Under the pieces are notes generated by a model that was not told the origin of the DNA, did no database searches, and saw only the letters and a program-made list of their open reading frames with translations. The translations under genes were made by a program, and so were the position numbers. This document shows positions 2,436 through 23,595 of a stretch of 34,871 bases of DNA, piece after piece. Each line of letters begins with the position of its first letter. The stretch's first letter is position 1. This stretch comes from a virus (lineage: Duplodnaviria > Heunggongvirae > Uroviricota > Caudoviricetes), in IMG/VR virus record IMGVR_UViG_2541047758_000018; one strand, 5' to 3'.

Positions 2436-2639
2436 ATGAACACCGACACTATTCCTACAAAAGGCTATATCAGACGCTTTCGCCTGGCTGAATTGCTGGG
2501 CGTTAGTGTATCCACCATCGACCGTAAAGTAAGAAACGGTTCACTACCACGTCCGGTAAAGCTGGGAGAAAAAATAACTGCGTTTGATGCGGTTGAGATT
2601 CACAACTGGCTGGCAGAACGCCGCGGGAAGGTGGCCTGA
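2436..2639 (+). CDS. AlpA-family (phage excisionase/transcriptional regulator-like) HTH protein, 67 aa
   Basis: Small protein with the pattern RFRLAELLGVSVSTIDR...LPRPVKLG....F...E...WL typical of AlpA/Xis-like winged-helix regulators; positioned directly downstream of the integrase module as in CP4-57 and PICI-type elements. Confidence 0.75.
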   Translation: MNTDTIPTKGYIRRFRLAELLGVSVSTIDRKVRNGSLPRPVKLGEKITAFDAVEIHNWLAERRGKVA

Positions 2640-3082: not shown

Positions 3083-3916
3083 ATGAACATCGAAAAAAGC
3101 AGATTAATTTCTGAGGCCGCCCCTCATCTGAACGCCTCTCTGGGCACAATTAACGGTAATGAATTTGCCGCAATTGTCCCGGTTATTCCTGGTCATATCG
3201 GTGGGCGTGAAACCAATATTGTTAGCGCAAAAGCGTTACACAAAGCGTTGGGCGTGGGAAAAGACTTCTCTACATGGATCGCTGATCGCATCTCTGAATA
3301 TGACTTCACCATTGGGCACGATTACTCAGTCCATAAAACAATTTCCCCAAATTTGGGGAAAAGCCCGAATGGCGCGGCTTACAGCAAGATTAAGCACTCT
3401 GGCAGACCCGGCAAAGACTATCTGTTAAGTGTCGGAATGGCGAAAGAACTGGCAATGATCGAACGCAATGATCAGGGTCGCGCTATCCGTCGTTATTTCA
3501 TCCAGTGCGAGGAAGAATTACAGCGTAGCGTTCCTGAAATCGCCGCCCGCTATCGTCGCCAGCTAAAAGCCCGTATCAGTGCCGCAAACAACTTTAAGCC
3601 AATGTGCGATGCGCTGAACATGGCCCGTGCCGAGCAGGGGAAAACGACGCAGCAACACCACTACACAAACGAGAGCAATATGATTTCTCGTATCGTTCTT
3701 GGTGGGCTAACTGCTAAGCAGTGGGCGCGGATAAATGGCTATTCTGGCGAACCTCGCGACCATATGAACGCAGAACAGCTTGAGCACCTCTCATATCTCG
3801 AAAGCACCAATATCACGTTAATTGATATGGGCATGGAATATGAGCAGCGCAAAGGAGAACTCACCCGCCTGTCGCAACGCTGGCTCGCTAAGCGTCTGGA
3901 GGCGGTCAATGTCTAA
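3083..3916 (+). CDS. Phage antirepressor-like protein (AntA/AntB-type N-terminal domain)
   Basis: N-terminal segment VSAKALHKALGVGKDFSTWIADRISEYDFTIGHDY matches the antirepressor/KilA-type pattern (..F.NWI..RI..Y.F.EG.D..); 277 aa is typical. Confidence 0.55.
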   Translation: MNIEKSRLISEAAPHLNASLGTINGNEFAAIVPVIPGHIGGRETNIVSAKALHKALGVGKDFSTWIADRISEYDFTIGHDYSVHKTISPNLGKSPNGAAYSKIKHSGRPGKDYLLSVGMAKELAMIERNDQGRAIRRYFIQCEEELQRSVPEIAARYRRQLKARISAANNFKPMCDALNMARAEQGKTTQQHHYTNESNMISRIVLGGLTAKQWARINGYSGEPRDHMNAEQLEHLSYLESTNITLIDMGMEYEQRKGELTRLSQRWLAKRLEAVNV

Positions 3917-4091
3917 GCCAACAGGAACACCACAACCACAAAAACGCTACAAAGATGCCCACGGAGCACTCGTTACTGTCGAAAGCGTGTCTCACAACCG
4001 AGTGACGTTTTATCGCGACGGGTATCAATCGCCATGCGTACAACCGCTGGCACGTTTCATGAAGGAGTTCGCGGAGGTTAACAAATGCTAA
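3909..4091 (+). CDS. Small hypothetical protein (60 aa); start chosen at internal ATG 3909 rather than ORF-track start 3822
   Basis: ATG at 3909 overlaps the stop of the antirepressor-like gene (ATGTCTAA), typical of translational coupling; the longer ORF-track version would overlap the upstream gene by about 95 nt. Confidence 0.4.
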   Translation: MSKPTGTPQPQKRYKDAHGALVTVESVSHNRVTFYRDGYQSPCVQPLARFMKEFAEVNKC

Positions 4092-4522
4092 CCGCCCAGA
4101 AGAAGATATTTTCACTGGCTGGTATATCGCCAAAATCCAGCAATATGACAGCAAAGTCTGGCATTAATACAGCAGATACAAGCAAAGTTTATCATTTTCT
4201 GGTGGTAGGAGCGGATGCCTTAACTATGTCAGAAATTACGGTCGATGGTGTTAGCATTGAGAAGGTCAGCGGCTGCGCCAGAGAATTTCTGGTCGTAGAT
4301 GACCTGTTCTGCTCGCGTAGTGACTCCACAAAAATCTTCGTCCACGCGCGTGACGTTAACGAAATGAGCGCGATGTACTGTGCTTCTGGTTCTTCCAATA
4401 GTGAGTTTTCGGAGTCCATAAAAAAGAGCTTGCCGTTATGCGGCAACACGGTTTATGGTTATAAGGCACCTCATAAAACGGGTGCCGGGTTTCGCAGCCC
4501 GGAAATGTACGAGGCGACACAT

Positions 4523-4544
4523 GACGCGCCGAGCGTCTTTTTTT
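4523..4544 (+). terminator. Putative Rho-independent terminator
   Basis: gacgc-gccga-gcgtc hairpin followed by ttttttt. Confidence 0.45.
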
Positions 4545-4550
4545 GTGCCG

Positions 4551-4590
4551 TTAGCCAGACTCACACTTTTTTCAGTGATGTGGTTATAAT
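4551..4590 (+). promoter_or_regulatory. Putative sigma70 promoter for the early (primase) operon
   Basis: Perfect -10 hexamer tataat at 4585-4590 with a weak -35 candidate about 17-18 bp upstream; followed by a roughly 150-nt hairpin-rich leader and an aaggagg Shine-Dalgarno before the ATG at 4747. Confidence 0.35.
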
Positions 4591-4746
4591 CCGCGTCGCT
4601 TGCAAAATTATGGTGGGCTGGACAGGGCAGCCGAAAGGCTGGCCGGTTTCCTTGTACGCCGGTACTGCGAACTCTGTTCAGTCCACCACCAGCGAGTTTC
4701 GCAGCTCCGGTGGTGGGAAGAATTCCCAGTACAAGGAGGCTGCCAC

Positions 4747-4941
4747 ATGCTGGCTACTACCCCTACCCAAAAACCGCAATTTATCTGGATTATCGCCGCA
4801 GTTCGCCGCGATTGCCCGACAATTACCGCCAAAATTCATCATATTGCTGCCGAGTCTGAACGCGATGCTCGCCGTTCTCTGGTGCGCGATCACGTCTGCT
4901 TTTTTGCTGGTCGTATCCGCATGGAGGTGGCACATGATTAA
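4747..4941 (+). CDS. Small protein (64 aa), possibly Icd/Kil-like (host cell-division inhibitor-like), first gene of early operon
   Basis: Strong Shine-Dalgarno aaggagg 7 nt upstream of ATG 4747; protein MLATTPTQKPQFIWIIAAVRRD...ARRSLVRDHVCFFAGRI resembles Icd-like small proteins as I remember them. Preferred over the 355-aa ORF 4085-5152 that spans it in another frame. Confidence 0.4.
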   Translation: MLATTPTQKPQFIWIIAAVRRDCPTITAKIHHIAAESERDARRSLVRDHVCFFAGRIRMEVAHD

Positions 4942-5144
4942 AACCTACGATGTGCATATGGACCCCCTCGAACGCACAAGCCAGATCATCACACTGACAG
5001 AAGTGATTAATGACATTCTGGTGAGCAACTCTCCCTCACGAGACGAAAAACTGAAGGCGTTACTCGCGATATTGGATCTCGCCGTTCGTGACGTTCATTT
5101 CCTGCTGGAAGGTGGCGAAATGCCGGTAAAAACGGGGGCAACCA

Positions 5145-5339
5145 ATGAATAACTCAATCAATACCCCTCGCCTTACGTCCGCACTTCAATTAATCGAGCA
5201 AGCAGCGGCTGTCCTGCTTGCTGTCAGTCTTTCGGCTGAAGAAATGGATGCTGCTGATGTCGTGGATGCGATTAAAGCGTGCTCATCTTTGGTTAACGAT
5301 GCCCGTGCAGAGCTGGTAATTCTTGGGGGTGAAAAATGA
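5145..5339 (+). CDS. Small hypothetical early protein (64 aa)
   Basis: Part of a chain of small ORFs with overlapping stop/start codons leading to the primase gene. Confidence 0.5.
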   Translation: MNNSINTPRLTSALQLIEQAAAVLLAVSLSAEEMDAADVVDAIKACSSLVNDARAELVILGGEK

Positions 5340-6764: not shown

Positions 6765-7128
6765 AAATGCAGAAATGGCGCTTAGCTCCGCAATCGGAGA
6801 GCAGGTGGCAAAGATTGCTGGTGCTGTGTGGATTCATAACCTTCATTCTACTGGTGAAGAGAAAATGGCAATTCAGACGCCAGAGGGACGCACCATTACT
6901 ACATCTCTGAAGCCGTCAGATGTTTGTGATCTGATTTGCGCATTCATGTACCCAGCAATGAGGACTGTCCACGGCGATAAGTGGAAACTTGCGACAACCG
7001 CTGAATTTGATATGTGGCTAAACAATGATGGCATGCTGACTGATTACGGAATAACCAAGTGGCAGATGCTGGTTAGCCATATCGCAAACGCTATAGACCA
7101 CGTGGGGTACGGTGATGCGAAACATTGA
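6757..7128 (+). CDS. Hypothetical protein (123 aa)
   Basis: Overlaps the upstream gene by 8 nt and the primase gene by 17 nt, typical phage-like coupling. Confidence 0.5.
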   Translation: MRENAEMALSSAIGEQVAKIAGAVWIHNLHSTGEEKMAIQTPEGRTITTSLKPSDVCDLICAFMYPAMRTVHGDKWKLATTAEFDMWLNNDGMLTDYGITKWQMLVSHIANAIDHVGYGDAKH

Positions 7129-9871
7129 TCTTATCCGTCAGGTTATCAGTGCGTCTGAAAACAACTGGCCTCATGTGCTGGGCTGCCTGAACATAAATGT
7201 CCCTGACTCTCCGCGCCGTCATGCTCCCTGCCCTGCATGTGGGGGCAAAGATCGATTCCGATTCGACGACAACGGGCGCGGTAGCTTCATCTGTAATCAG
7301 TGCGGCGCTGGTGATGGGCTGGATTTAATTAAACGCGTAAATAACTGCGACACAACAGAGGCGGCGTTGCTTGCCGCTGATGTTCTGGGTATTGATTACC
7401 GGACAACGGAAACACCAGAAGCCACCAGCCAGAAACGGGAACAACTGGAAACCGAGCGCCAGCGACGCGAACAGGAGCGCCTGAAAAGGGCAGAGAAGGA
7501 CGAACAACAAAGACGGGATACGTTTTCCCGTCAGTTTGATGACATGCGCAGAAAGGCTGTAAACGGCAAATCTGATTATCTGGTTGCGAAAGGGGTAGGT
7601 GATTTTACATTCCCCGTGTTGCCCGATGGATCTCTGTTGCTGGCGCTGGTGGATAAATCCGGCGCAGTCACAGCAGCACAGACTATTACCTCACATGGTG
7701 AAAAAAGACTCCTGACAGGTTCAGCAAAGCGAGGGGCATATCACGCCATAAACGCACCAGAAACAACACAGAGCATCTTAATCGCAGAAGGGCTGGCAAC
7801 GGCATTATCTGCCCATTTAATTCGTCCAGAGGCGCTGACAGTGGCGGCGATTGATGCCGGGAACCTGTTATATGTCGCCCAGGTACTGCGGGATAAATTT
7901 CCTTCAGCACAAATCATCATTGCTGCGGATAACGACCACAGCGAAGGAAGACAAAACACGGGGAGAATAGCAGCAGAAAAAGCAGCTTTATCTGTTTCTG
8001 GATGGGTGGCATTACCCCCGACAGATCACAAAGCAGACTGGAATGATTACCACCAAAAACACGGCATTAAATGCGCCACAGAAGCGTTCAATAAGTCAAT
8101 GTACCAACCACAGGGTAATGGCGTGAAACAGGAGCCACAGACCATTGAGGGAAGCGATTTTAAGGTTATGGATACCGACCCACTGAAACCAAGAATAGAA
8201 AGCCGCGAGGATGGTATTTATTGGGTATCTCCGAGAGCTGACAGCCAGAGTGGAGAAATCATCAATAACGAAAGCTGGTTATGTTCTCCGTTAAGCGTTA
8301 TCGGTACTGGCAGAGACGATAAAGACCAGTATCTCATTCTTCGCTGGCTGTCGTTTGGTTCTGAAACGCCGACAACCGCTGCCATTCCACTGGCTGATAT
8401 TGGTGAACGTGAAGGATGGCGCACACTTAAAGCTGGTGGGGTAAATGTCACGACCAAAAGCAGCCTCAGAGCAATACTGGCAGACTGGCTACAACGCAGT
8501 GGCTCTCGTGAATTGTGGCGTGTTGCTCATGCCACTGGCTGGCAATGCGGAGCGTACATCATGCCTGATGGGGAAATCATCGGAACACCTGAAAATCCTG
8601 TGCTGTTCAGCGGGAGAAGCTCAGCCGCAGCCGGATATACCGTCTCAGGGAGCGCGAAAAGCTGGCGTGATAACGTGGCGCGTCTGGCCTTTGGTAACTA
8701 TTCAATGATGACCGGGATCGGCGCAGCACTGGCAGCGCCATTGATTGGGCTGGTGGGCGCTGACGGGTTCGGCATTCATTTCTATGAGCAGTCGAGCGCA
8801 GGTAAGACCACCACGGCAAACGTGGCGAGCAGCTTATACGGCAACCCTGATTTACTGCGGCTGACGTGGTACGGAACCGCGCTGGGGCTGGCAAATGAAG
8901 CTGCCGCCCACAATGACGGACTAATGCCGCTTGATGAAGTTGGTCAGGGCGCTGATCCTGTCAGTGTTTCACAGTCTGCCTATGCGTTATTTAACGGTGT
9001 AGGGAAACTGCAAGGCGCTAAAGATGGTGGAAACCGGGATCTAAAACGCTGGCGTACAGTGGCAATCAGCACCGGAGAAATGGATTTAGAAACATTTATC
9101 GCTACTTCCGGGCGAAAAACCAAAGCCGGGCAACTGGTGCGACTGCTGAATATTCCGTTGAGTAAAGCAGTACGCTTTCACGATTACCAGAACGGAAAAC
9201 AGCACGCAGACGCACTGAAAGACGCTTACCAGCATCACCACGGCGCGTCCGGGCGTGAGTGGATTAAATGGCTGGCAGACCACCAGCAACAGGCTATTAA
9301 AACTGTTCGTGATTGCGAAAGCAGATGGAGAAGCCTGATCCCATCCGATTATGGTGAGCAGGTTCACCGTGTAGCCGCGCGATTTGCCATTCTGGAGGCC
9401 GCATTGTTGTTAGGCGAGGTTGTAACAGGCTGGGATGCTCAGACATGCCGTGATGCGATACAGCACAGCTATAACGCATGGTTGCGCGAGTTCGGCACAG
9501 GTAACAAAGAGCATCAGCAGATTATTGAACAAACGGAGGCATTTCTTAATGCCTATGGGCTTAGCCGTTTTGCACCATTTCCATACAGCCCGGCAGATTT
9601 GCCCATCAAAGATTTAGCCGGATACCGTCAGCGTGGAGAACATGACGAAAGTCCAATGATTTTCTACACATTCCCGGCCACATTTGAAAAGGAGATCGCA
9701 TGTGGTTTCAACGCAAAACAGTTTGCTGAAGTGTTGAAAAAAGCCGGGATGCTAACCCCACCAAACAGCGGTCGTGGATACCAAAGAAAATCACCACGTA
9801 TTCAGGGACGACAAATAAACGTTTATGTACTCAATTACCAGCCAGGAGATTACAACTCATCTGAAGAATGA
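7112..9871 (+). CDS. P4 alpha-like primase-helicase (Zn-ribbon + TOPRIM primase + C-terminal NTPase domain), 919 aa
   Basis: Zinc-ribbon motif PCPACGGKDRFRFDDNGRGSFICNQCGAGDGLDLI; TOPRIM-like acidic motifs ILIAEGLATAL and IIIAADNDHSEG; C-terminal region with Walker-A-like YEQSSAGKTT. Confidence 0.9.
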   Translation: MMRNIDLIRQVISASENNWPHVLGCLNINVPDSPRRHAPCPACGGKDRFRFDDNGRGSFICNQCGAGDGLDLIKRVNNCDTTEAALLAADVLGIDYRTTETPEATSQKREQLETERQRREQERLKRAEKDEQQRRDTFSRQFDDMRRKAVNGKSDYLVAKGVGDFTFPVLPDGSLLLALVDKSGAVTAAQTITSHGEKRLLTGSAKRGAYHAINAPETTQSILIAEGLATALSAHLIRPEALTVAAIDAGNLLYVAQVLRDKFPSAQIIIAADNDHSEGRQNTGRIAAEKAALSVSGWVALPPTDHKADWNDYHQKHGIKCATEAFNKSMYQPQGNGVKQEPQTIEGSDFKVMDTDPLKPRIESREDGIYWVSPRADSQSGEIINNESWLCSPLSVIGTGRDDKDQYLILRWLSFGSETPTTAAIPLADIGEREGWRTLKAGGVNVTTKSSLRAILADWLQRSGSRELWRVAHATGWQCGAYIMPDGEIIGTPENPVLFSGRSSAAAGYTVSGSAKSWRDNVARLAFGNYSMMTGIGAALAAPLIGLVGADGFGIHFYEQSSAGKTTTANVASSLYGNPDLLRLTWYGTALGLANEAAAHNDGLMPLDEVGQGADPVSVSQSAYALFNGVGKLQGAKDGGNRDLKRWRTVAISTGEMDLETFIATSGRKTKAGQLVRLLNIPLSKAVRFHDYQNGKQHADALKDAYQHHHGASGREWIKWLADHQQQAIKTVRDCESRWRSLIPSDYGEQVHRVAARFAILEAALLLGEVVTGWDAQTCRDAIQHSYNAWLREFGTGNKEHQQIIEQTEAFLNAYGLSRFAPFPYSPADLPIKDLAGYRQRGEHDESPMIFYTFPATFEKEIACGFNAKQFAEVLKKAGMLTPPNSGRGYQRKSPRIQGRQINVYVLNYQPGDYNSSEE

Positions 9872-10634: not shown

Positions 10635-11096
10635 ATGGAACTAAAATTTATTGATAACCCTGTGCGATTACAGGCCTTTCTTAACGAGCCAGGCAATACC
10701 GAAAATATTGTTGAGCCGGGGCACACGTACTACATCAAGCCTGATGCGGTATATCTCGGCATCTACGAAGGATTAGTGCTGGCTGGCGTTCATGAAGTGC
10801 GTAACTTCTGGCATAGCGTTGTTGAATGCCATGCGGTGTACGACCCCGGATTCCGTGGTGAATATGCACTGCAAGGGCATCGATTATTCTGCAAATGGCT
10901 TCTCGAAAACTCACCATTCCTTAACAGCATCACTATGGTTCCTGACACCACGAAATACGGACGGGCAATTATCCGTTTGCTTGGCGCTACCCGTGTTGGT
11001 CACCTTGATGATGCTTATATCAGATGTGGTAAACCCGTCGGCGTAACGCTTTATCAGTTAACTCGGCAACAATATAAGGAATTCAGCGAATGTTAA
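10635..11096 (+). CDS. Hypothetical phage-like protein (153 aa), first large gene of ejection-protein-like operon
   Basis: ORF 16 nt downstream of the small regulator-like ORF; no motif recognised; position is analogous to P22 gp14 or T7 gp13 ahead of the ejection proteins. Confidence 0.5.
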   Translation: MELKFIDNPVRLQAFLNEPGNTENIVEPGHTYYIKPDAVYLGIYEGLVLAGVHEVRNFWHSVVECHAVYDPGFRGEYALQGHRLFCKWLLENSPFLNSITMVPDTTKYGRAIIRLLGATRVGHLDDAYIRCGKPVGVTLYQLTRQQYKEFSEC

Positions 11097-11767
11097 TTAC
11101 CCATATAGCTCATAAACATCTCAATCGTGCCGTATACGAAAAAGGCGGTGATGGTGGTGCCTCTAAAGCTCAGGCGAAGGCCCAGCAGCAGGCAATTGAT
11201 TTGCAGCGCGAGCAGTGGAATACGGTGATGAATAATCTCAAGCCGTATGCAGAAGTCGGATTGCCTGCTTTACAACAACTGCAAGGACTGATGACTCTGG
11301 AAGGGCAGAATAAAGCCGCGAATGATTTCTTTGGTTCTGGTTTATATAAAACACAGGCAGATCAGGCCCGTTATCAGAACCTTGTCTCAGCAGAAGCTAC
11401 CGGGGGGCTTGGCTCAACAGCTACCAGTAACCAGTTATCTTCCATTGCGCCCATGCTTTATAACAATTGGCTCAGTGGGCAAATGCAAAATTATGGAAAC
11501 CTGCTAAATGTCGGGATGAATGCGGCATCAGGGCAGGCAACGGCAGGGCAAAACTACGCCAATAATACCGGACAACTCTTGCAGGGGCTTGGCGCTATTC
11601 GTGCAGGTCAGGCGCAGCAGCCATCCAGTCTTGCGCGTGGTATTGGTGGGGCAGCATCAGGCGCTTTAGCGGGTGCGCAACTTGGTTCCGTTGTTCCTGG
11701 AATAGGAACTGCGGCCGGCGCTATTGGTGGTGGGCTTATTGGTCTTGTTGGGGGGCTTGGATTCTAA
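11090..11767 (+). CDS. Glycine-rich protein (225 aa) with hydrophobic Gly/Ala C-terminal tail; podovirus ejection/internal-virion-protein-like
   Basis: C-terminus GIGGAASGALAGAQLGSVVPGIGTAAGAIGGGLIGLVGGLGF is membrane-insertion-like; Q/N-rich body; operon-coupled to neighbours. Confidence 0.5.
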   Translation: MLITHIAHKHLNRAVYEKGGDGGASKAQAKAQQQAIDLQREQWNTVMNNLKPYAEVGLPALQQLQGLMTLEGQNKAANDFFGSGLYKTQADQARYQNLVSAEATGGLGSTATSNQLSSIAPMLYNNWLSGQMQNYGNLLNVGMNAASGQATAGQNYANNTGQLLQGLGAIRAGQAQQPSSLARGIGGAASGALAGAQLGSVVPGIGTAAGAIGGGLIGLVGGLGF

Positions 11768-13086
11768 TGGCGACATGGCAACTTGGCGGGCTGCCTAGCA
11801 TGGCACCGCAAAATGATAATGCTCCTCGTTCTTCCGTTCCTCAGCCTGTGCAGTATCAGCAGCAGCCAAACGTAGGTTTAATGGCGCTACAGGGGCTAAG
11901 AGGCGTTGCTGAGATTAATCAGCAGGCGCAAATTTCCCAGCAGTTAAAAGAATATCAGGCACGGTTGGGTAGTGCGGTAGCTAATAATGATCGTGTTGGC
12001 GTGCAGAAGTTAATGGCCCAGTATCCCCAGTTTATGGCTGATTCTCAAAAACAGATGGGATTCATTGATGCTGAGCAAAATCGACAGACCGCTGACGCTG
12101 CCATGAATCTGCGTCTTGCGTCACAAACTGGAGATCCACTGACCATGCAGAAGGCCATTCAGCAGGCAAATCCAGTATTACAGCGATTTGGTCTTCCTGC
12201 TGAAGAGGTTTATCAGTCTTGGCAGAATGACCCACAGGAATTCAACAGAATCACTGACCTCATCCACCTCCATGCTGATCCAAATAGTTACTTTAGTGTT
12301 CAAGAGAAGCAGCAAGGGCAGAGCATTGCACAGCAGAACGCAGATACATCCGCATATAATGCTCAGGTTAATGCGGAACAGGGTAATCGACGTCTCGATA
12401 TGGAGCAGTTCAAAGTCCTATCCGATAACCAACTACGCACGAGAGAAATGGTTCTGAAAGCACGACTTGGACGTGCTCAAAATGACATCGAGAGAGACAA
12501 GCTCAATGCTGAACTGAGCAAGGTACAGCAGGCGAAAGTGGAGAAGATGAACGATAAAATTAATACTGTTGCAGGTAACATCGACTCCTTGAACTCTGCG
12601 CTTGAAGTGGGTCATGAACTGGCGGGAATTGTAGGGAAACATCCTTCGGCCGTTACCCGCTCGCAGAACTATAACCCCCTGACGCTGGGGTTTGGATTCC
12701 TTCCTGATGTAGCAGAAGACACACGAAGCCTACGCGCCAAAGCTGATGAATACAACCTAAAGGTTATTCTGCCTAGCCTCAAAGGGACTTTTGGCTCTAA
12801 CCCAACCGAAGGGGAAAGGGCTGCCCTTATGCAATCTCAAAATGGCATTAAGTCAGCAACCAGCAATGAGGCATTTTTGCGAGAGTTGAATAAAGCGCAG
12901 GACGTAATTATTCGAATGCAGAAACGACAGATTGCCGGGCTCGGTATTCCTGTAACCAAATCTAAGGACGAAGAAACTGATACCAAAATGCTGTTGCAGG
13001 ATCCTTCACTAGTTAAGGATTATGTGACCGCACATGGCTATCTGCCGGAAAGTTACTATCAGGCAAAACTTAAGGGATGGCAATGA
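11767..13086 (+). CDS. Gln-rich coiled-coil-like protein (439 aa); ejection/internal-virion-protein-like
   Basis: ATG overlaps the upstream stop (TAATGG); composition and size resemble the middle ejection protein of podoviruses (P22 gp20 / T7 gp15 class). Confidence 0.5.
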   Translation: MATWQLGGLPSMAPQNDNAPRSSVPQPVQYQQQPNVGLMALQGLRGVAEINQQAQISQQLKEYQARLGSAVANNDRVGVQKLMAQYPQFMADSQKQMGFIDAEQNRQTADAAMNLRLASQTGDPLTMQKAIQQANPVLQRFGLPAEEVYQSWQNDPQEFNRITDLIHLHADPNSYFSVQEKQQGQSIAQQNADTSAYNAQVNAEQGNRRLDMEQFKVLSDNQLRTREMVLKARLGRAQNDIERDKLNAELSKVQQAKVEKMNDKINTVAGNIDSLNSALEVGHELAGIVGKHPSAVTRSQNYNPLTLGFGFLPDVAEDTRSLRAKADEYNLKVILPSLKGTFGSNPTEGERAALMQSQNGIKSATSNEAFLRELNKAQDVIIRMQKRQIAGLGIPVTKSKDEETDTKMLLQDPSLVKDYVTAHGYLPESYYQAKLKGWQ

Positions 13087-15414
13087 TGGCACAACTGACA
13101 GAAAAACAGAAAGCCTATTCCCGTCATCTCGATGAAAAATATGGTTTCCCATCAGGGACGATGGAAACATTAGTTGGCAATGAATCTAGTGGTAACGGAA
13201 GTGCCGAGTCACCGAAAGGAGCTAGAGGATTTGCTCAACTGATGCCCTCAGTAATGAGTGATGCTGGTTATCGTGGAACAGATCCGCGCTCACTGCCATT
13301 TGAAAAGCAAATGGATATCGCAGCAAACCATCTCAATAAAGGAATGAAGCGATTTGGTGATATAGGTATGGCATTGGCTGGGTATAATTCTGGCTATGCT
13401 CGTATTAATGCCGTCAGAAACGGTAAATCTACACTGCCAGATGAAACGGCTAATTACGTAAGTAAATTTGCAGATGCTGGAATAATCCCTGATGACAGTG
13501 AAATCTTGCAGTTTGCACAAACCAGTCAACATCGCAATCTTCAGCAGCCTGACTACTCAGAGCTTGATAAAGAAATCTCTCAGGTGGGAGATATTTCTGC
13601 ATGGGAAGCAAAACGTCAGCAATTTAAGAACATAGAAGCAGGACTACCAACAGCCAGTTCATGGGAGCAGAAAAGAGCTCAGTTTCTCGCCGATGAAAAT
13701 GCCGGGGAACCGCAGCAGCAAGTAGCCAAGTCTAACCTTAATCCTGAGATGGAATATCTTTCGCCAGGACTGAAAGCTGCGCCAGAGCAGATGGCCAGAG
13801 GGATTGCTAATATACCGTTTGATGTAATGGACGCAGGCGTGGGGGTAGTCAATGCGGCGCAATCAGCCGGAGCATGGGCAGCTCAGAAGCTTGGTGTGGG
13901 TGATGGCACATACACGCCCATATCACCTGTCTTTCGCCCAGTAGACCAACCTACAGATCCATACGCGCAGGCTGGTGAGCAGCTAGCACCTTACCTTATT
14001 ACAGGATTAGGTGCAGGAAAGGCAGCTACCGCAGCTTCTTCAGTTGCCAACGCTCCACGTGCTGAACGTGCGGCCACAAAGGTGGCTAGTATGTTGGCAG
14101 AAAACCTGCCAGGTACATTGGTGAACGCCCAAAAGAACGGGCAGATCAGCCCAGAAGACCTAGCAAAAGAGACAGGTATTGGCCTAGCAGGATCGCTAGG
14201 AGCACGCGCTTTAATAAAGAGCGGACAGACAGCCAGTGACGTAATGCGAGATGTATTGCGGAGTAATACAAATCAATCAGGCCATGTGTTAGGGGCAGCA
14301 AATACTCTGGAAACCGCCAATGATGTATCGAAAGCAGCGCGTTCTGCCGTAGGCCGAGAGCATATCGCATCGCAGGCATCAAACGTCAGAGATGATGTCG
14401 CTAAGGCGGCGAAAATCACTGGTATTAATATCAACACCCTGACGCCTGGAATGCGCTCAGGTAGTCGTGGAATTGCCCAAGCAGAAGGTGTTCTGGCATC
14501 AACTCCTGGGAATGTTCAGGATGCTCACCTTACGGCCTTCAATGAAATATCCTCAAAGTTGAATAAGCAGTTGTCTGATTTCGGTGCTGAGTCTGGAAGC
14601 GCATCAGAAAAAAGCGCAGCAATTAAAGAGCGCATCATCGCGAGCCTCAGTGATATGAAAACAGCAGAGAATATGGCATGGGCAGAACTGCGAAGCACGA
14701 TGCCACGCGAAAGGATGAAAATGAGTAATGGGATGGCTGTCGTCCAAGCAGAAAAAGCAGCCAATGTTCCACTCAGCCCGGAGATGAAACAGTTTCAGGC
14801 TGCCAACAACCAAGGTGGCGGCATAACCTTCGACGGGATGAAGGCATGGCGTGCTAAGTTTGCTGATGCTGAACAAGCAAACACCCGGGCAGGTAAGGCC
14901 AATGCCGCCCGGATTGCCGGAGAAATGCGCAGAGCTATCACTGATGACATGCGCATCATGGCTGAAAAAGGAAACTTCCTCACAGAATGGCAGAAAGCTA
15001 ACGATCTCTCTAAAAGTTACATTATCGCCAAACAAAATGCCGAATCTGTTTTTGGTCGAGATCTCGCATCAGACGCTATGGTAAGAAAAGGTGCCGATAC
15101 GCTTAAGGCATCCGCAAACACTGGAACGGGAGCTTTTCACCGTCTTATCTCCGCGCTGCCGGAAGCAGAACGCCAACCTGCAATAGCATCTATTCTTCAG
15201 CATGCTGTGGCGCAGGGAGAGAAGGGAGGAATCGGTGAAGAGTCAGGTATCCAGTATTTTGCCAAGCTCATGACCCAGCAGAATGTAAACGCCATCAGTC
15301 GTCATGCGCCAGATCTCGGTAGAATGATGAAAGAGTTCGGTGTACTCGCTAAAGCCAGTACCAGACCGCAGCGATACGTAGAGCGCACGGGAAGAACAAC
15401 TGAGGCTCTCAAAA
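13077..15414 (+). pseudogene. Phage internal-virion/ejection-type protein with N-terminal lytic transglycosylase (SLT) domain, 3'-truncated by IS911-like insertion (native part about 779 codons)
   Basis: SLT signature ESSGNGSAESPKGARGFAQLMP ... ALAGYNSGY near the N-terminus. The ORF reads through the IS end at 15415 and terminates inside the IS at 15569, so the last 51 codons are IS-derived. Confidence 0.7.
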
Positions 15415-15444
15415 TGAAGTGGTCAACAAAAACTGGCCACCGAG

Positions 15445-16628
<1,184 letters not shown>

Positions 16629-18034: not shown

Positions 18035-18766
18035 ATGAATCAACCAATACACAATGCTTACTGGTTATCCCGTTTTGAAAGTATTCTCAACAGTGCCCTG
18101 GCGCAACACCGTGCCGTCTCGTTAATCCGGGTGGATTTACGTTTCCCTGAGTATATGCCTGCCACCATTATGGATACCGATTTAGATTCAGCGGTGATTT
18201 CTCGTTTTTTCGAATCCCTGAAAGCAAAAATTCAGGCTTACCAGCGACATAAACGACGTGCCAACAAGCGTGTGCATGCAACCACTCTGCGTTATTTCTG
18301 GTGCCGGGAGTTCGGCAAGGAAAAAGGCAGGAAACATTATCACGTGATATTACTGCTCAACAAAGATACCTGGTGCTCGCCAGGGGATTTCACCGTTCCT
18401 TCTTCGCTGGCGACGCTGATCCAACTGGCATGGTGCAGTGCTCTGCATCTTGAGCCCTGGCAGGGTAATGGACTGGTTCATTTTTCCAGGCGGACGCCTT
18501 TCCGTAAACCGACATCATCCGATGCTCGCCCTTCTTCCGATGACACGCCTTTACCTGGTGGATGTTCTGATACCCGGAAGGATTCTGACAAAAAGTCTGG
18601 TGGATCCGCTGTGCTCTGGATCAAGCGTGGTGATGTAGAAGCGATGCAGAAAGCCATGGAGAGAGCCCGTTATCTCGTGAAGTATGAGACGAAGCAGCAT
18701 GACGGTTCTGGTCAACGTAATTATGGTTGCAGTCGTGGAGCGGGGCGTCTACTGGATGGCAGGTGA
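18035..18766 (+). CDS. CP4-type prophage protein, YagK/YfjJ-like (inovirus Gp2-like family) - assignment from memory of family features
   Basis: 243-aa protein with RVDLRFP ... KHYHVILLL pattern; tandem paralog arrangement next to an AlpA-like gene as in CP4-6/CP4-57 cryptic prophages. Confidence 0.45.
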   Translation: MNQPIHNAYWLSRFESILNSALAQHRAVSLIRVDLRFPEYMPATIMDTDLDSAVISRFFESLKAKIQAYQRHKRRANKRVHATTLRYFWCREFGKEKGRKHYHVILLLNKDTWCSPGDFTVPSSLATLIQLAWCSALHLEPWQGNGLVHFSRRTPFRKPTSSDARPSSDDTPLPGGCSDTRKDSDKKSGGSAVLWIKRGDVEAMQKAMERARYLVKYETKQHDGSGQRNYGCSRGAGRLLDGR

Positions 18767-18916
18767 ACCCTGTAAAACGGCATCCGGTGCCTGAGCGTAT
18801 GCCACGGTAGGGCGTCAGCCAACGCCCTTACCTCGTATTCTGATCACTCATTCTGAAGTCATGCAACGGTATTTTTATCTGCTTCCGCTCTTGGAAACAC
18901 TCCGTCGGTAAAAACT

Positions 18917-18956
18917 TACCGCCTTGATTAATGATGTGAACCGAAGTCAACGGAGG
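18917..18956 (+). promoter_or_regulatory. Conserved motif, copy 2
   Basis: taccgccttgattaatgatgtgaaccgaagtcaacggagg; shares tgattaatgatgtgaa...gtcaa...gga with copy 1. Confidence 0.45.
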
Positions 18957-19149
18957 TCATTCACCTTAAACCCACCTCAGGAATTTTACACCTGTCAGGT
19001 CTCCTGACTGTCCTGGCATACGACATCTGCCATCCCCGGTTCCACGGTTATTACATCAACAACCTCTGTACACGACGCCTTCAGTTTCACAATACGCTCG
19101 TCTTTCGCTGGCGGGGATGCGTCGTGCGTTTCTATATGGAGCATATCTT

Positions 19150-19722
19150 ATGAATGGTATCCCTCATTTCGACTATAGCCTGGCGCCCTTCTGGCCGTCT
19201 TATCAGAACAAAATCATCGGTGTTCTCAACCGTGCGCTGCGTGAACAGTCCTGCTCCCGGGTACGGCGGATCCTGCTTCGTCTGCCATGTGAATATGACA
19301 CTACCTTCAGTAGCAGAAAGACCTGGTTTGGTATGGACTTTATCGAAACTGTCAGTGCGCTGATGAATGCAAACCCCGGACGTGATCTCTGCTGGCTCCT
19401 GACTCGTCATCCGGAAAAGCCGGAATACCACGTGGTGCTGTGCGTCAGACAGGAGTATTTCGACGGCCCCGAACTGGATCGGTTGATACTGGATGCCTGG
19501 AGCAACGTACTGGGCTTCGCGTCACCGGGTGAAGCGGCACCGTACCAGAAGCAGATAACACGGGATGTGGTGCTGGACAGTCGTTCACCGGACTGCGAAG
19601 ACATCCTCAAAGAGCTGATATGGGCATTCAGTGATTTCGCCCGCGATCGTCGTGGTGTGCGCGATCCGGAAGCCCGTTACCTCGTCGGTAATCCCTGGTA
19701 TCCCGTAGCAGGCCAGCTCTGA
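19150..19722 (+). CDS. Second YagK/YfjJ-like paralog (190 aa); start placed at ATG 19150 (ggag Shine-Dalgarno 9 nt upstream), alternative start 19117
   Basis: RILLRLPCEYD ... EYHVVLCVRQEYF parallels RVDLRFPEY ... HYHVILLLNKD of the upstream paralog. Confidence 0.45.
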   Translation: MNGIPHFDYSLAPFWPSYQNKIIGVLNRALREQSCSRVRRILLRLPCEYDTTFSSRKTWFGMDFIETVSALMNANPGRDLCWLLTRHPEKPEYHVVLCVRQEYFDGPELDRLILDAWSNVLGFASPGEAAPYQKQITRDVVLDSRSPDCEDILKELIWAFSDFARDRRGVRDPEARYLVGNPWYPVAGQL

Positions 19723-19790
19723 AAGCACAGTTCAGCAGATTCACCCGCATTTGCCCAACCTTCATAAATCTCACAAAGGACATTCTGACC

Positions 19791-20024
19791 ATGTTGACCA
19801 CAACAAGCCACGACAGCGTATTGCTGCGTGCTGACGATCCCCTGATCGACATGAACTACATCACCAGTTTCACCGGTATGACCGATAAATGGTTTTACAA
19901 GCTGATCAGTGAAGGCCATTTTCCTAAACCCATCAAACTGGGTCGCAGCAGCCGCTGGTACAAAAGCGAAGTGGAGCAGTGGATGCAGCAGCGAATCGAG
20001 GAGTCACGAGGAGCTGCTGCATGA
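19791..20024 (+). CDS. AlpA-family HTH regulator (second copy in window)
   Basis: NYITSFTGMTDKWFYKLISEGHFPKPIKLGRSSRWYKSEVEQWM matches the AlpA pattern (HTH then FP.P.K.G...RW...EV..W). The true start may be the internal ATG at 19851. Confidence 0.6.
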   Translation: MLTTTSHDSVLLRADDPLIDMNYITSFTGMTDKWFYKLISEGHFPKPIKLGRSSRWYKSEVEQWMQQRIEESRGAAA

Positions 20025-20289
20025 AACGTGTTGTAATACCGGTACGCTGGCGATGTGCAAAATGCCGGCGCTGGTATTGTGGAAATCAGCCCTGTCCCTG
20101 GTGCTGGCGACACTCTCGTTCATCTTTCTGCTGATACCCTCCTGTCAGTAGCGGGTTGTAGCTCTTCCCTGACCGATTTGTCATTCCACTCTTATTGTTT
20201 ATAACGGGTATTGAGCCGGTACTGGCGTGTTTTCCTGCATGTTTGCACCGGTTCAGTAAAATTCAACAGGATTCGAAAAGGAACATTTC

Positions 20290-20838
20290 GTGCAAATAAC
20301 CGAAGCATTACTTTCAGAGCCAGGGGAAATCCGGCGTTTTGTTCAGCAGGCGGTGGATCACTGGCCGCATCTGTTGGCATTTCACTTCACGCTCCATTCG
20401 GCTGAAGAAAACATCAACGGGCAACGGGTTCAGACATTCTGTACTTCCTTTTACCGGCAGGTACACGAACGTATTGCTGAACGTAATCACACGGCCAGTC
20501 CATCATCGCCGTTGGTATTACGCTGGTTGCGGGAACAACATGGAAAAGCAACAATACGATGCCTGTTGCTGCTCAGCCAGACGAGCATTTGCCATCCGCG
20601 AGCCAGTGTCACAGTTGATGAACAATGTTCGCAAGTGGTGGATTTACTGCAACATAGCTGGCAGGTGATAAGTGCTGGCGGACAATGCCGGGTGGAAAGG
20701 TGTTTTCGGGTTGCCCGGGGTGATACATCCGGTCAGTATGTTGCGTTAAAAACAGTCGCATTGTCTCTGGGGTTACCGGTTGTGACCGCCATTACCCATC
20801 GTCCGGTACAGCGCTGTACATTGATTACAGCTCAGTGA
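20290..20838 (+). CDS. Hypothetical protein (182 aa, GTG start in ORF track)
   Basis: ORF only; weak resemblance to the YagK/YfjJ-like neighbours (HFTLH ... RCLLLLS). Confidence 0.4.
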   Translation: MQITEALLSEPGEIRRFVQQAVDHWPHLLAFHFTLHSAEENINGQRVQTFCTSFYRQVHERIAERNHTASPSSPLVLRWLREQHGKATIRCLLLLSQTSICHPRASVTVDEQCSQVVDLLQHSWQVISAGGQCRVERCFRVARGDTSGQYVALKTVALSLGLPVVTAITHRPVQRCTLITAQ

Positions 20839-20839
20839 A

Positions 20840-21181
20840 TCAGCGCTTTCTGGCTTTTCGTCGGTCATTCAGCACCATTAGCCGGGCCTCTGCCTCTTTC
20901 TGTTCCTGTAGTGTCACTTCCCCGCACGGCAGCCCCTTCAGATCGTAACGGGCGCCATCTGCCATTAACGCACATGAATAGTGCGGAGACTGCACATAAG
21001 ACGCCACTGCCGCGTGTAATGTACCAGCGCCAAACGCCAGTTCTCTGATGGCGATATCCTGTATCAGGTCGTCAGGTATCTCAACTTTAAGCGGTTGGGG
21101 TTTTTCCCGGTTGAATAACTCAGGCCAGAGTTCCACAAGACGATTAATACGCTTACGGTTTTTACGCTGGCGTTTTGTCAT
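20840..21181 (-). CDS. ProQ/FinO-domain RNA-binding protein (113 aa)
   Basis: LVELWPELFN...PLKVEIPDDLIQDIA...LHAAVASYVQSPHYSCALMADGARYDLKGLPCGEV aligns by eye to E. coli ProQ (LAERFPHCF...PLKIGIFQDLVDRVA...[35 protein letters not shown]). Confidence 0.65.
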   Translation of the reverse strand: MTKRQRKNRKRINRLVELWPELFNREKPQPLKVEIPDDLIQDIAIRELAFGAGTLHAAVASYVQSPHYSCALMADGARYDLKGLPCGEVTLQEQKEAEARLMVLNDRRKARKR

Positions 21182-22014
21182 ATGCCGCCACGGTGTTTTT
21201 TCAGCAGAGCAGGGCTCTGTTTATCGTTCAACTGTGGTATCCGTTCCCTGGCCTTCACGTTGTGTGCAGTGTTCGTTTTATCCTGCAGCGGCGTTGCCGG
21301 TGATTTACTGAAAATGCCCTGTGGTTTACGGTTAATGGTCAGCGTTACCATCAGTATTGTTACCTCATGCTGTCAATGGAAGTAGTACTCCATCCAGAGC
21401 CTTGGCGACCCCGGGGCTGAAAACGAAACAATAACCCGCGCACAGTGCGAGGAGCCCGGGCGTGAAGCAATCAGCAGGTAATATTAATGGCAAGACCAGT
21501 AGGTTCTTTAAACAAACGAACAATATCAGCAAATACGACAACTCCCGGAGAGGTAAAAAGTTTTTCACTTGAGCACTTCTTAAAAAAATGGAGACGAACA
21601 AAAATGGGGCGACATACCTGGAAAGTATTGCTACCAGATGATGCTAAAAAGCAGAAATAGTGTTCCAGGCCTGAAAGGGATGAGAATCAGTATCTGTGTG
21701 TATTTATAACATCTTCTTGAAGAGGCTGGAGATTGTTAGTCCATTAGTATAATCGATATTCGTGTTCCTGCGAATATGCAGGCTACACCAGATATATGAT
21801 TGCTACCGAATTTCATCAGTTTGATGAAATTACGCATCATACTGCGGGCTTTTCTCATTAACATTAACGAAAGTGAATGGACTCAGACAAGTAGTGACCG
21901 GCGCAATTTCGCTAAGTATCAAATACAAAGAACGTTCTCTTACTTTCTGCGATGGCCTTTCCTTCGGAAAGGAAGTGACGATTAAGTACCGAAAAATGTG
22001 ATACACATATTATT

Positions 22015-22049
22015 TTTATGGCAAATCACCTGATAGGATTTGCCATAAA
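22015..22049. promoter_or_regulatory. Perfect 13-bp-arm palindrome about 25 nt upstream of the H-NS-like gene (candidate operator or hairpin)
   Basis: tttatggcaaatc-acctgatag-gatttgccataaa. Confidence 0.45.
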
Positions 22050-22074
22050 TGAATGAAAAGCTGAGTGTTAATAA

Positions 22075-22509
22075 ATGAGTAAGAAGAAAATTTCTTTTGA
22101 AAATGAAGAGTTCATTACTTACCGGGCATTACTTCTGAGTATTGACTTTGTTAAAAAACTGGTTATAGAAATGTCTGATGAAGATTTAAATAAGGTTAAG
22201 GAAAACTTTGACATAGCTATTCAGCAACGTAATGAGCGAAAGGAAAATATGAAAGCTATCAAATCACTCATGGATGAACATGGTATATCTCTGGAAGATT
22301 TTTATTGTGAATTTGGCAAAAAATCACAGGCAGGCAGAAAAAGTGTGTCAGGAAGGCATAAATACGAGTATGACGATAACGGTAAAAGAATGTACTGGAA
22401 TGGACAAGGACGTCGGCCTAAGGCCATAGCAGAGGCTATAAAAGCCGGAGGTTCTCTTGATGATTTTCTTATATCTCAGGAAGTATCATCTGGTCCTGAT
22501 TATGAATAA
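22075..22509 (+). CDS. H-NS family nucleoid-associated protein paralog (144 aa), island-borne
   Basis: C-terminal DNA-binding signature YEYDDNGKRMYWNGQGRRPKAIAEAIKAGGSLDDFLI matches H-NS Y.Y.DENGE.KTWTGQGRTP..I.....LDDFLI; N-terminal coiled-coil-like region; AT-rich gene. Confidence 0.8.
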   Translation: MSKKKISFENEEFITYRALLLSIDFVKKLVIEMSDEDLNKVKENFDIAIQQRNERKENMKAIKSLMDEHGISLEDFYCEFGKKSQAGRKSVSGRHKYEYDDNGKRMYWNGQGRRPKAIAEAIKAGGSLDDFLISQEVSSGPDYE

Positions 22510-22925
22510 CAGCAATATATATTTTGATCTGTATTAATATCAAGAAATATATAGTAAACACTTCTCCGGAGTTGATATATTATCGGCAGGGAATGAAAAT
22601 GCCTGACTTCATGCTAATATATGGCAATAAAGATAAATGAGTTATACTGTAGAGTTATGAAATAACGATAGTGATAAGAGCCAGTCAGCGAGACTGATTG
22701 TTTTATCTGTACTGGCAGCAGGCAGTTTACCATGGCTTACTGCTTCAGCTTCTGAATCTGTGTTGATGATATTTATCTGTTTATAAGGCAAGGCTTGTCT
22801 CTGTGAGTTGGTAATCTTTATCCCGGGATAGCTTTTCTCTGTATTTTTAGTATAGCCAGTAATCGATTACTCCTGTATGCGCAAAAATATAGCAACTCAT
22901 CCATGGTAAACATGTCAGCTTTTAC

Positions 22926-23498
22926 CTACATATAGATAAATTCATATTTCACGATATACGACCCAATTTTATTAACACGAGCTGTTACCCATACACCTGT
23001 CATCCCCTGTTTATGGTGACTGCGCGGGAACTCTTTATTTGTACAAAGTTGTATCCATCTGGAAGTGTTTTGATCTTTCAACCAGAGTCCCGCTTCACAA
23101 TGTCCATACTTTCCTCTTGATGGTCCCGGAAAAACAACATCATATTCAGATTCATAGCTAATAACCTTATCCGGAAAAAGATAAACACAGACATCGTAAC
23201 AGTTCAGACTCAGTATAAATCCAAGACAAAATCCCCCCGTGAATGCATTTAATAAATACTTTAATGTTCTGTTAAAGGTGCGGATATAAAATGCATAAAT
23301 AAAAGAAAGAGAACCGGTGGTTATACCGGTGCAAAAATATGTTGTCCATTCAGGTACCGTATTTTGTAAAACAGTATAATGAGATATGGCGGATGCCCAC
23401 AACATATACCAGCACAAACCACCTGCAATAAGATATGTTATTGCTGTGGAAAACCATTTCCTGTATTTATTTTCAGGGTGATTGTTTTTGCCCATCAA
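22926..23498 (-). CDS. Hypothetical membrane protein (190 aa, about 4 predicted TM segments plus C-terminal soluble domain)
   Basis: Hydrophobic stretches ITYLIAGGLCWYMLWASAI, GITTGSLSFIYAFYI, FTGGFCLGFILSL; AT-rich; lies 97 bp downstream of, and co-directional with, the dGTPase gene. Confidence 0.5.
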   Translation of the reverse strand: MMGKNNHPENKYRKWFSTAITYLIAGGLCWYMLWASAISHYTVLQNTVPEWTTYFCTGITTGSLSFIYAFYIRTFNRTLKYLLNAFTGGFCLGFILSLNCYDVCVYLFPDKVISYESEYDVVFPGPSRGKYGHCEAGLWLKDQNTSRWIQLCTNKEFPRSHHKQGMTGVWVTARVNKIGSYIVKYEFIYM

Positions 23499-23595
23499 CG
23501 CATTTCCAGAATATTTAAAAATAACCTGTCACCGAAACAGAATAAAGGCGCAATAACCATAACGGGAAAATATGCGCCTCTGGTAATCGACAGTG

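Follow-up and report, generated by a model that had tools for sequence, protein, structure and literature searches.

The stretch of DNA analyzed here, which we refer to as the window, comprises 34,871 nucleotides (nt) of a tailed virus of the Caudoviricetes (IMG/VR record IMGVR_UViG_2541047758_000018). From its 5′ end, the window carries genes for an integrase, AlpA, an AntA-type antirepressor and a DUF4222 protein, followed by an interval of about 650 bp (4092-4746) that is the subject of this study. On the 3′ side of this interval lie an icd/kil-like gene, which heads the replication (early) operon and is the proposed target of control, then small open reading frames (ORFs) and a primase gene (Table 1). 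Two small RNAs, belonging to the families of the P4 seqA and CI RNAs, were found in the interval (PMC3632133; PMC4825925, section 21). The IsrK model is matched at full length (69 bits for a gathering score of 50, E = 6.4e-13, model positions 1-77 of 77), as is the C4 model (81.1 bits for a gathering score of 45, E = 1.3e-14, model positions 1-87 of 87). A sequence-only reading of this DNA, made without database searches, had suggested that an RNA-based immunity or attenuation element analogous to that of P4 could be encoded here. Indeed, both RNAs score above their gathering scores, they occur in the P4 order and their target boxes co-vary with them. The module is the known IsrK/C4 (P4 seqA/CI) immunity system, here with a new specificity, and positions 4401-4746 very probably constitute the immunity region of a satellite island resembling P4 or the phage-inducible chromosomal islands (PICIs), laid out on the PLE-seqA-cI-seqC-kil plan of P4.

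Table 1. Coordinates of the features discussed in the text (positions in the window)
Feature	Position	Strand	Details
alpA	2436-2639		
AntA-type antirepressor gene	3083-3916		
DUF4222 gene	3909-4091		
Eta-like pass-through ORF, 355 aa	4085-5152	+	PGAP 'ash family protein'; translation probable
P22 gene-3-type small terminase (terS) fragment, 107 nt	4233-4339	-	terS nt 268-374, 91% identical
pac-like 22-mer GAAGATTTTTGTGGAGTCACTA	4318-4339	-	aligns with annotated P22 pac site, NC_002371.2 4-25
Putative PLE-like sigma-70 promoter	4430-4459	+	-35 TTGCCG 4430-4435, 18-nt spacer, -10 TATGGT 4454-4459
IsrK / P4 SeqA-type RNA, 78 nt	4466-4543	+	Rfam RF01394
IsrK hairpin 1	4466-4485	+	
IsrK hairpin 2	4486-4501	+	loop holds box a1 TTCGCAG (4491-4497)
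IsrK box b1 TGTACGAGG	4506-4514	+	
IsrK intrinsic terminator	4523-4537, T-run up to 4544	+	also called independently by terminator scan
Spacer hairpin	stem 4574-4583 / 4591-4600	+	loop TTATAAT 4584-4590
C4 / P4 CI-type antisense RNA	4606-4693	+	Rfam RF01695
C4 loop b′ GTTTCCTTGTAC	4646-4657	+	
C4 single-stranded a′ CTGCGAA	4665-4671	+	
seqC-like target region	4698-4740	+	a2, intervening hairpin, b2
a2 TTCGCAG	4698-4704	+	
b2 GTACAAGGAGGC	4729-4740	+	holds Shine-Dalgarno AAGGAGG 4733-4739 of icd-like gene
icd/kil-like gene, 64 aa	4747-4941	+	NCBIfam phage_ICD_like, 71.7 bits
Primase gene	7112-9871		Zn-ribbon/Toprim/DUF927
DUF2824 gene	10635-11096		
P22_gp7 gene	11090-11767		
Inj_translocase (gp20-like) gene	11767-13086		
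SLT-domain gp16-like ejection protein, 830 aa	13077-15569		

The predicted fold of the leader (4466-4760) has a free energy of -128.4 kcal/mol, compared to -100.2 ± 5.3 kcal/mol for shuffled sequences (z = -5.35). Taken with the Rfam E-values, this shows that the interval holds more than chance hairpins. Three hairpins singled out in the sequence-only reading turn out to be genuine parts of the two RNAs: two of them are IsrK hairpins 1 and 2 and the third, at 4628-4641, is the first inner hairpin of C4. The C4 RNA consists of a 17-bp closing stem enclosing two inner hairpins; a tRNA-like stem is visible in its sequence and its 3′ end reads ...CCACCACCA. We also noted that the 3′ strand of the closing stem, GUCCACCACC (4682-4690), is able to pair with a downstream segment, CCGGUGGUGGG (4709-4717). 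These segments occupy columns 217-225 and 244-252 of our alignment, where one compensatory change from C-G to U-A is seen (in loci L008 and L024, in our own numbering), and their pairing may represent an alternative structure of the unprocessed leader.

To compare the module across related elements, we used the icd-like protein as a query and obtained 19 loci from Escherichia, Klebsiella, Enterobacter, Leclercia, Raoultella and other genera. The Rfam scan covered 20 loci (these 19 plus one further E. coli locus), the segment-by-segment comparison covered 21 elements (the window, P4 and the 19 loci), and structure conservation was assessed in the 11 elements that have a 62-nt spacer between isrK and C4. 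C4 was found upstream of icd in 20/20 loci and isrK scored above its gathering score in 19/20, with L023 showing C4 only. The Rfam-type structure is strongly conserved: 97.1% of the alignment cells are paired, versus 37-47% when the pairing partners are slid against each other, 19 pairs show changes on both sides, and none of 500 shuffles reached the observed values. The two 5′ hairpins and the terminator of isrK (helices 1-3) are 98.7-100% paired in the alignment of related sequences, and the helices of C4 (helices 5-7) 98.9-100%, with six compensatory pairs in the closing stem and five in the first inner hairpin; the second inner hairpin is invariant and therefore uninformative for covariation. 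The spacer between isrK and C4 falls into eight length classes (21, 23, 24, 25, 48, 50, 62 and 107 nt), and the distance from C4 to the icd ATG is 50-54 nt in the 21 elements.

DNA similarity between genera begins at about 4401 and continues into icd. The region from about 4092 to 4400 is lineage-specific, being common only to the Escherichia copies of the island, and it gave no match to an RNA family. The earlier proposal of a single structured leader throughout 4092-4746 thus holds for 4401-4746 and fails for 4092-4400, which is variable sequence containing a fragment of a P22 terS gene with its pac-like site, to which we return below.

Complementary sequences of the seqA/seqC kind had also been anticipated in the leader; they are present, and they co-vary across the 21 elements. 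The a′ segment of C4 is the exact complement of both a1 in IsrK and a2 in the downstream region, and the b′ loop pairs with b2 and, through one G-U pair, with b1. The duplex predicted between the C4 core and the downstream region has an energy of -43.4 kcal/mol (z = -4.5). The 21 elements display seven different a′ heptamers and 15 different b′ loops, each of which is matched in its own IsrK and in its own downstream region. For a′, the complementary run is 7.0 nt in cognate combinations vs. 5.8 nt in non-cognate ones, both with isrK and with the downstream region. For b′, the respective values are 8.4 vs. 5.3 nt with isrK and 10.4 vs. 6.1 nt with the downstream region. Mean duplex energies follow the same pattern (-35.5 and -37.1 kcal/mol for cognate vs. 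-25.2 and -27.8 kcal/mol for non-cognate combinations). The a1 and b1 boxes of the window IsrK, with cognate runs of 7 and 9 nt, also co-vary, and the a′ sequence of the window is common only to near-identical Escherichia copies. This three-way covariation is the strongest evidence for a seqA/seqB/seqC (a1b1/a′b′/a2b2) logic.

A putative PLE-like promoter lies immediately upstream of isrK. Its predicted start at 4466, 6 nt past the -10 box, coincides with the first base of isrK, and the block CTTGCCG-18 nt-TATGGT-6 nt-isrK is kept in nearly all of the 21 elements, L012 being the clear exception. The geometry is collinear with that found upstream of seqA in P4 (TTGCCT-18-TATAGT-6-+1). A conserved A-rich block (4416-4429) lies on the 5′ side of the promoter. 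It should be noted that the -35 box sits within an inverted repeat, TTGCCG ttatg CGGCAA (4430-4446). Read on the minus strand (4446-4430), the repeat is followed by a T-run, giving a terminator-like call for leftward transcription; the conserved A-tract beside the promoter could alternatively be an UP element.

The interval is also crossed by the long ORF 4085-5152. The sequence-only reading had observed, correctly, that this frame runs over the terminator at 4523-4544 and enters the icd-like gene in a different frame, and had concluded that it was probably not a real gene. Its full path takes it through the PLE-like promoter, IsrK, the terminator, C4 and the target boxes, across icd out of frame and on to the stop codon of the gene at 4934-5152. 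The comparison of relatives argues against the earlier conclusion. Exactly one forward frame is free of stops from isrK +1 to the icd ATG in 21/21 elements, and it is always the frame of isrK +1, whereas the remaining two frames contain 1-7 stops each. The phase is kept despite the variable spacers: the starts of isrK and C4 are 98, 101, 125, 128, 140 or 185 nt apart, all of which are 2 mod 3. Upstream of isrK, the sequences are unrelated between genera, yet the frame stays open, for a median of 94 codons in the isrK +1 frame vs. 15 and 1 codons in the others. The start codon of the ORF (ATG at 4085) is preceded by GGAGG and overlaps the DUF4222 stop codon (4089-4091) in the motif ATGCTAA (sequence GGAGGTTAACAAATGCTAA). 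Starts of this type, with a Shine-Dalgarno (SD) sequence (GGAGG or GGGGG) and an ATG overlapping the stop of the upstream gene, are frequent in the relatives, and the arrangement bears the signature of translational coupling to the DUF4222 gene.

Codon-level selection in homologues, which would speak for a translated protein, is thus seen in part, in the form of a conserved frame; it is not seen as purifying selection on the N-terminal part. Within E. coli, the N-terminal codons have acquired neither stops nor indels, and Pfam and NCBIfam scans returned nothing significant for the N-terminal 146 amino acids (aa) of the ORF or for the small downstream ORFs. The conserved property of the N-terminal part is its open frame, not its product. 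The counterpart in P4 is the eta frame, which has a constitutive promoter internal to it (Forti et al. 1999, via PMC10111431). Full-length Eta is made only from the upstream late promoter, with Kil a truncated form of it, and 'Eta translation prevents termination' (PMC10111431, citing Forti et al. 1999). ORF 4085-5152 is probably an eta-like frame that is meaningful and translated.

The relation of this frame to icd takes two forms. In 13 of the 21 elements the frame is in phase with icd, as in P4, and in eight it is out of phase, seven of which run on to the stop of the next gene. The window belongs to the second group. Its icd SD and ATG are one base closer together than those of P4, which puts the frame out of phase; IsrK and the icd ATG are 281 nt apart (2 mod 3). 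When icd is recoded synonymously, only about 11% of the recodings are expected to leave an alternative frame without stops. The out-of-phase arrangement is a minor variant of which we have met no description.

Following the logic of P4, we propose that transcription from the promoter at 4430-4459, conserved as described above, would start at 4466 and that most transcripts would end at the terminator at 4523-4544, yielding the 78-nt IsrK/SeqA RNA. Transcripts that read through would be processed to a stable C4/CI RNA of about 80 nt (4606-4693), as in P4 and P1, where RNase P reportedly makes the 5′ end of the C4/CI RNA. Pairing of C4 a′/b′ with a2/b2, for which the complementarity is plain, would then make the ribosome-binding site of icd/kil inaccessible. 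Left untranslated, the leader would in turn be terminated, a step that is Rho-dependent in P4, leaving the operon from icd to the primase gene switched off; this would be the immune state. By analogy with eta, translation of ORF 4085-5152 would be confined to transcripts that originate in the alpA-antA-DUF4222 operon on its 5′ side. Ribosomes crossing IsrK, the terminator, C4 and the targets would prevent folding, pairing and termination, so that transcription from the upstream promoter would be insensitive to immunity. IsrK may also act in trans as an anti-C4 activator, by titrating or opening C4 in the manner of the Salmonella prophage Gifsy-1.

The layout originally drawn from the sequence alone was a different one: the terminator at 4523-4544 would end the antirepressor operon, the perfect TATAAT at 4585-4590 would be the -10 box of the early promoter, with a leader starting at about 4597, and the IsrK-like part would be only a 3′ untranslated region. 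The hexamer is certainly present; of the 11 elements with a 62-nt spacer, 8-9 have retained TATAAT or something close to it, and a transcript beginning at about 4597 would start directly before C4. The role of the hexamer as a promoter is another matter. Its -35 sequence, CACACT, is poor, there is no TGn motif, and our generic promoter scan called neither the TATAAT nor the PLE-like promoter. The TATAAT forms the loop of the spacer hairpin, whose stem (87% of cells paired, 5 compensatory pairs) occurs only in the 62-nt spacer class, and in some members of this class the loop reads GTCAT, AGCAT or CTATACT instead. The elements with 21-25-nt spacers lack both the hairpin and the TATAAT and have no room for a promoter, while keeping the whole module, and P4 has none at that place. 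Moreover, deletion of the isrK promoter in Gifsy-1 leads to loss of the C4-like RNA STnc1160 (PMC4825925, section 21). We consider a second promoter at the TATAAT unlikely, and the layout built on it similarly improbable. As for the terminator, its hairpin and T-run are real, but they fall inside the isrK model and are invariant among relatives; it terminates the leader of IsrK itself, behind the PLE-like promoter, and is not the end of the antirepressor operon. A second alternative is that ORF 4085-5152 is an ordinary gene whose product, a regulator of the Bro/Ash type, does the work here and that the RNA-family matches are incidental. The ORF does match Pfam PF10554 (Phage_ASH) with 99.8 bits (gathering score 26), it is annotated accordingly by PGAP, and the open frame and SD+ATG starts of its relatives would fit an ordinary gene as well. 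The match, however, spans aa 124-232 (nt 4454-4780), which is exactly the stretch holding isrK, the terminator, the spacer, C4, the targets with the SD, and the first codons overlapping icd. The same hidden Markov model also matches the obsolete 'cI gene product' coding sequence of P4, which lies over the CI RNA (59.7 bits; P4 8584-8168). Conservation tracks RNA pairing, with its compensatory changes, and RNA-RNA complementarity; the spacer classes differ in length by multiples of three and are unrelated in sequence; the C-terminal partner varies (icd in 13 elements, the next gene in seven); and the N-terminal parts are non-homologous across genera and under no constraint within E. coli. What the 'Ash family' similarity reflects is RNA-level conservation read in the eta frame, not an independent protein domain, and we regard an ordinary gene as highly improbable. 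In several genomes, the 'ash family protein' call replaces or truncates the icd gene call.

The remaining alternative concerns the direction of control. In the mode described for Gifsy-1, IsrK acts in trans to open a closed cis-structure between IsrK and C4 on read-through transcripts, making IsrK an activator and C4 not a repressor, with translation starting at an AUG inside C4 (4610 in the window, in the eta frame) and coupled to the downstream genes. The experiments on Gifsy-1 itself speak for this mode (PMC4825925, Table 1, sections 12 and 21). Applied to the full leader, RNAalifold predicted a cis pairing of IsrK a1/b1 with C4 a′/b′, supported by many compensatory changes, that corresponds to the closed 'structure A' shown for the Gifsy-1 locus (PMC4825925, section 12), and the AUG at 4610 is invariant and in the open frame. 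Against it, there is no recognizable SD in front of this AUG, a2/b2 overlap the icd SD as they do in P1 and P4, and the surrounding genes (integrase, alpA, icd/kil, primase) are those found in P4, whose immunity factor is the CI RNA. We view the Gifsy-1 mode as possible for the island but rather doubtful; it should be said that it and the P4 mode are not mutually exclusive.

Several points weigh against the P4-type immunity scheme that we favor. The PLE-like promoter matches the consensus at 8/12 positions and falls below the threshold of the generic promoter scan. It is by homology that we infer the start at 4466, the efficiency of termination, the processing of C4 and the dependence on Rho. 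Since IsrK is an activator in Gifsy-1 and the repressor role of the C4-like RNA was not confirmed there, the direction of control proposed for the island is provisional. As to the eta-like ORF, the case for its translation is made only by the openness and phase of the frame. Its N-terminal 127-128 or so codons show no amino-acid constraint within E. coli: the 44 variable sites are distributed 18/9/17 by codon position, and 12 are synonymous vs. 32 non-synonymous. Lastly, the frame is out of phase with icd (offset 4747-4085 = 662), unlike in P4, with the consequence that the 'nested kil' part of the P4 model is not literally valid here.

Among known systems, P4 (NC_001609) provides the closest parallel. 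An Rfam scan places its isrK at 8692-8615, followed by the terminator, its C4 at 8507-8420, then the target boxes and the kil start at 8365, in the same order as in the window. The promoter (a putative one in the window), the isrK-family RNA with its terminator, the C4-family RNA and the target boxes share both order and spacing between the two, and in both the second target box covers the SD of an icd/kil-like gene of 64-66 aa. Each also has a long ORF whose start lies ahead of the promoter and which is coupled to the gene before it (PMC10111431), in the window as judged from the sequence. The P4 ORF (8812-8168, 214 aa) begins 5′ of PLE and has Kil as its end; the ORF of the window is out of phase with icd, stops together with the next gene and includes an N-terminal part of 127 codons, holding the P22 terS fragment, that P4 does not have. 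The two further differ in specificity (a′ is CTGCGAA in the window vs. TTCTCAC in P4, and b′ is CCTTGTAC vs. CCTGTGAA), in the isrK-C4 spacer (62 nt with an extra hairpin vs. 107 nt) and in the upstream operon, which encodes AntA and DUF4222 proteins in the window and only a Vis/AlpA homologue in P4.

The c4-icd-ant locus of P1/P7 resembles the window in having an RNA of the RF01695 family and in using the a′/b′ logic, with one set of boxes (a1b1) ahead of the RNA and the other (a2b2) behind it, on the ribosome-binding site of icd. The P1/P7 C4 RNA is reportedly processed from a longer transcript. The genes controlled in P1 are icd and ant, whereas in the window the antirepressor gene lies upstream of the module and the operon consists of icd and replication genes. 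The c4-a1b1 model (RF03163) scored 22.5 bits in the window, below its gathering score of 46.7. In the IsrK-orf45 (STnc1160)-anrP locus of Gifsy-1 in Salmonella, IsrK has a promoter to itself and a terminator that is leaky; an RNA of about 80 nt, complementary to IsrK and released by processing, comes next, and an ORF that passes through this RNA is coupled to the following gene (PMC4825925). The window shares this plan, with a putative promoter, a terminator predicted to be leaky, a C4 RNA whose processing would be expected by analogy and a similarly placed ORF with a probable coupling. The Gifsy-1 locus differs in its downstream antirepressor gene, in the length of its ORF (45 codons) and in that IsrK was shown to be an activator; the ORF of the window is open from far upstream and the genes that follow are icd and replication genes.

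The 107-nt terS fragment in the lineage-specific part of the interval lies antisense to ORF 4085-5152. Outside the fragment the TerS frame is broken, and the island does not encode a TerS. The fragment begins exactly at the pac site as annotated in P22, so that its first 22 nt form a pac-like 22-mer. This 22-mer agrees with P22 pac at 17/22 positions (5 differences) and at 10/12 in the core AAGATTTATCTG, and it has a single mismatch to a published pseudo-pac pattern (PMC10996546). It is identical (22/22) to the native site of a full-length P22-like terS at IMG/VR locus L031. A sister lineage of the island, represented by two IMG/VR contigs (L030:12093-12121 and L032:4113-4141), has kept only about 30-40 nt, centred on the same 22-mer. 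There, the 22-mer lies 3′ of a gp16-like gene and, with a shared AGTCCATAAAAAGGG block as the reference, is oriented oppositely to the 22-mer of the window. One genome (IMG taxon 2845778185) is the source of both L032 and L031, the P22-like phage with the identical site. The AGTCCATAAAAAGGG block had led us to suspect a PLE/IsrK module after the pac-like core in L030 and L032, but Rfam finds neither isrK nor C4 there.

Copies of the island carry the variants AAGG and AATG in the site. Other full-length P22-like terS genes have AAGG natively, along with the downstream polymorphisms that are linked to it. The window-type fragment is nearest to that of Salmonella P22, while the L026-type fragment is nearest to E. 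coli P22-like phages such as IME10, and the boundaries of the fragment are identical in all island variants. These varied affinities within constant boundaries suggest one acquisition followed by repeated conversion against helper terS genes. From the sequence, a borrowed pac site is plausible, though the fragment could equally be a recombination relic. An antisense RNA directed against the helper terS mRNA seems less likely, the short version in L032 being in sense orientation relative to its neighbors. Mimicry of helper sites has a parallel in the cos sites carried by the cos-type Staphylococcus aureus pathogenicity islands (SaPIs) and by the E. coli PICIs, to which the putative pac-like 22-mer may be compared; P22 pac lies within gene 3, whereas the window has only the 107-nt fragment of that gene, with a predicted site. 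In a limited literature search, we came across no satellite described as using a P22-type pac site.

A bolder proposal joins the two parts of the ORF. On the one hand, the fragment would supply a helper-derived pac site by which the island is packaged by the terminase of a P22-like helper, as hinted at by the 22-mer kept in the sister lineage, by its sharing a genome with a phage that has the identical site and by the island polymorphisms that match different terS lineages; on the other, the ORF in which it is embedded would be selected only for being translated, acting as a translation-driven anti-terminator with two interchangeable wirings, one ending in icd and the other in the next gene. 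We put forward this joint proposal tentatively and think it would more probably fail than hold.

The island unit itself extends from position 1 to about 15414 (15 kb) and is conserved in many E. coli genomes at 98-99% identity; in strain GN02350 it adjoins yicC. A search for its attachment sites with the tRNA-Thr region of L001 found none, because the integrase of the window differs from that of L001. Just 3′ of the integrase gene we noted a further RNA, int-alpA (Rfam RF02996, 1269-1335, plus strand; 60.6 bits, gathering score 35.8). Positions 10635-15569 form a block of P22-type virion and ejection-protein genes, in which the DUF2824 gene is presumably gp14-like. Beyond the island lie an ORF with a YagK/YfjJ_C domain (18035-18766), an H-NS-like ORF (22075-22509) and, on the minus strand, an HD-domain, dGTPase-like ORF (23596-24849); the region 18035-24849 has the appearance of additional DNA gained by horizontal transfer.

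The module itself is ordinary, being known in P4-like satellites and in many temperate phages. Genome annotations of the island omit both RNAs and often icd, and recognizing the module mainly corrects the annotation. The set of 21 elements nevertheless provides clean natural evidence for selection on both RNA pairing and leader translation, and its seven a′ and 15 b′ specificities, each with matching targets, could serve directly as a panel of orthogonal antisense/target pairs. If anything here is new, it is the terS/pac fragment, which, taken with the P22-type ejection-protein genes, suggests that this widespread E. coli island may be a satellite of P22-like phages and may borrow their packaging signal.

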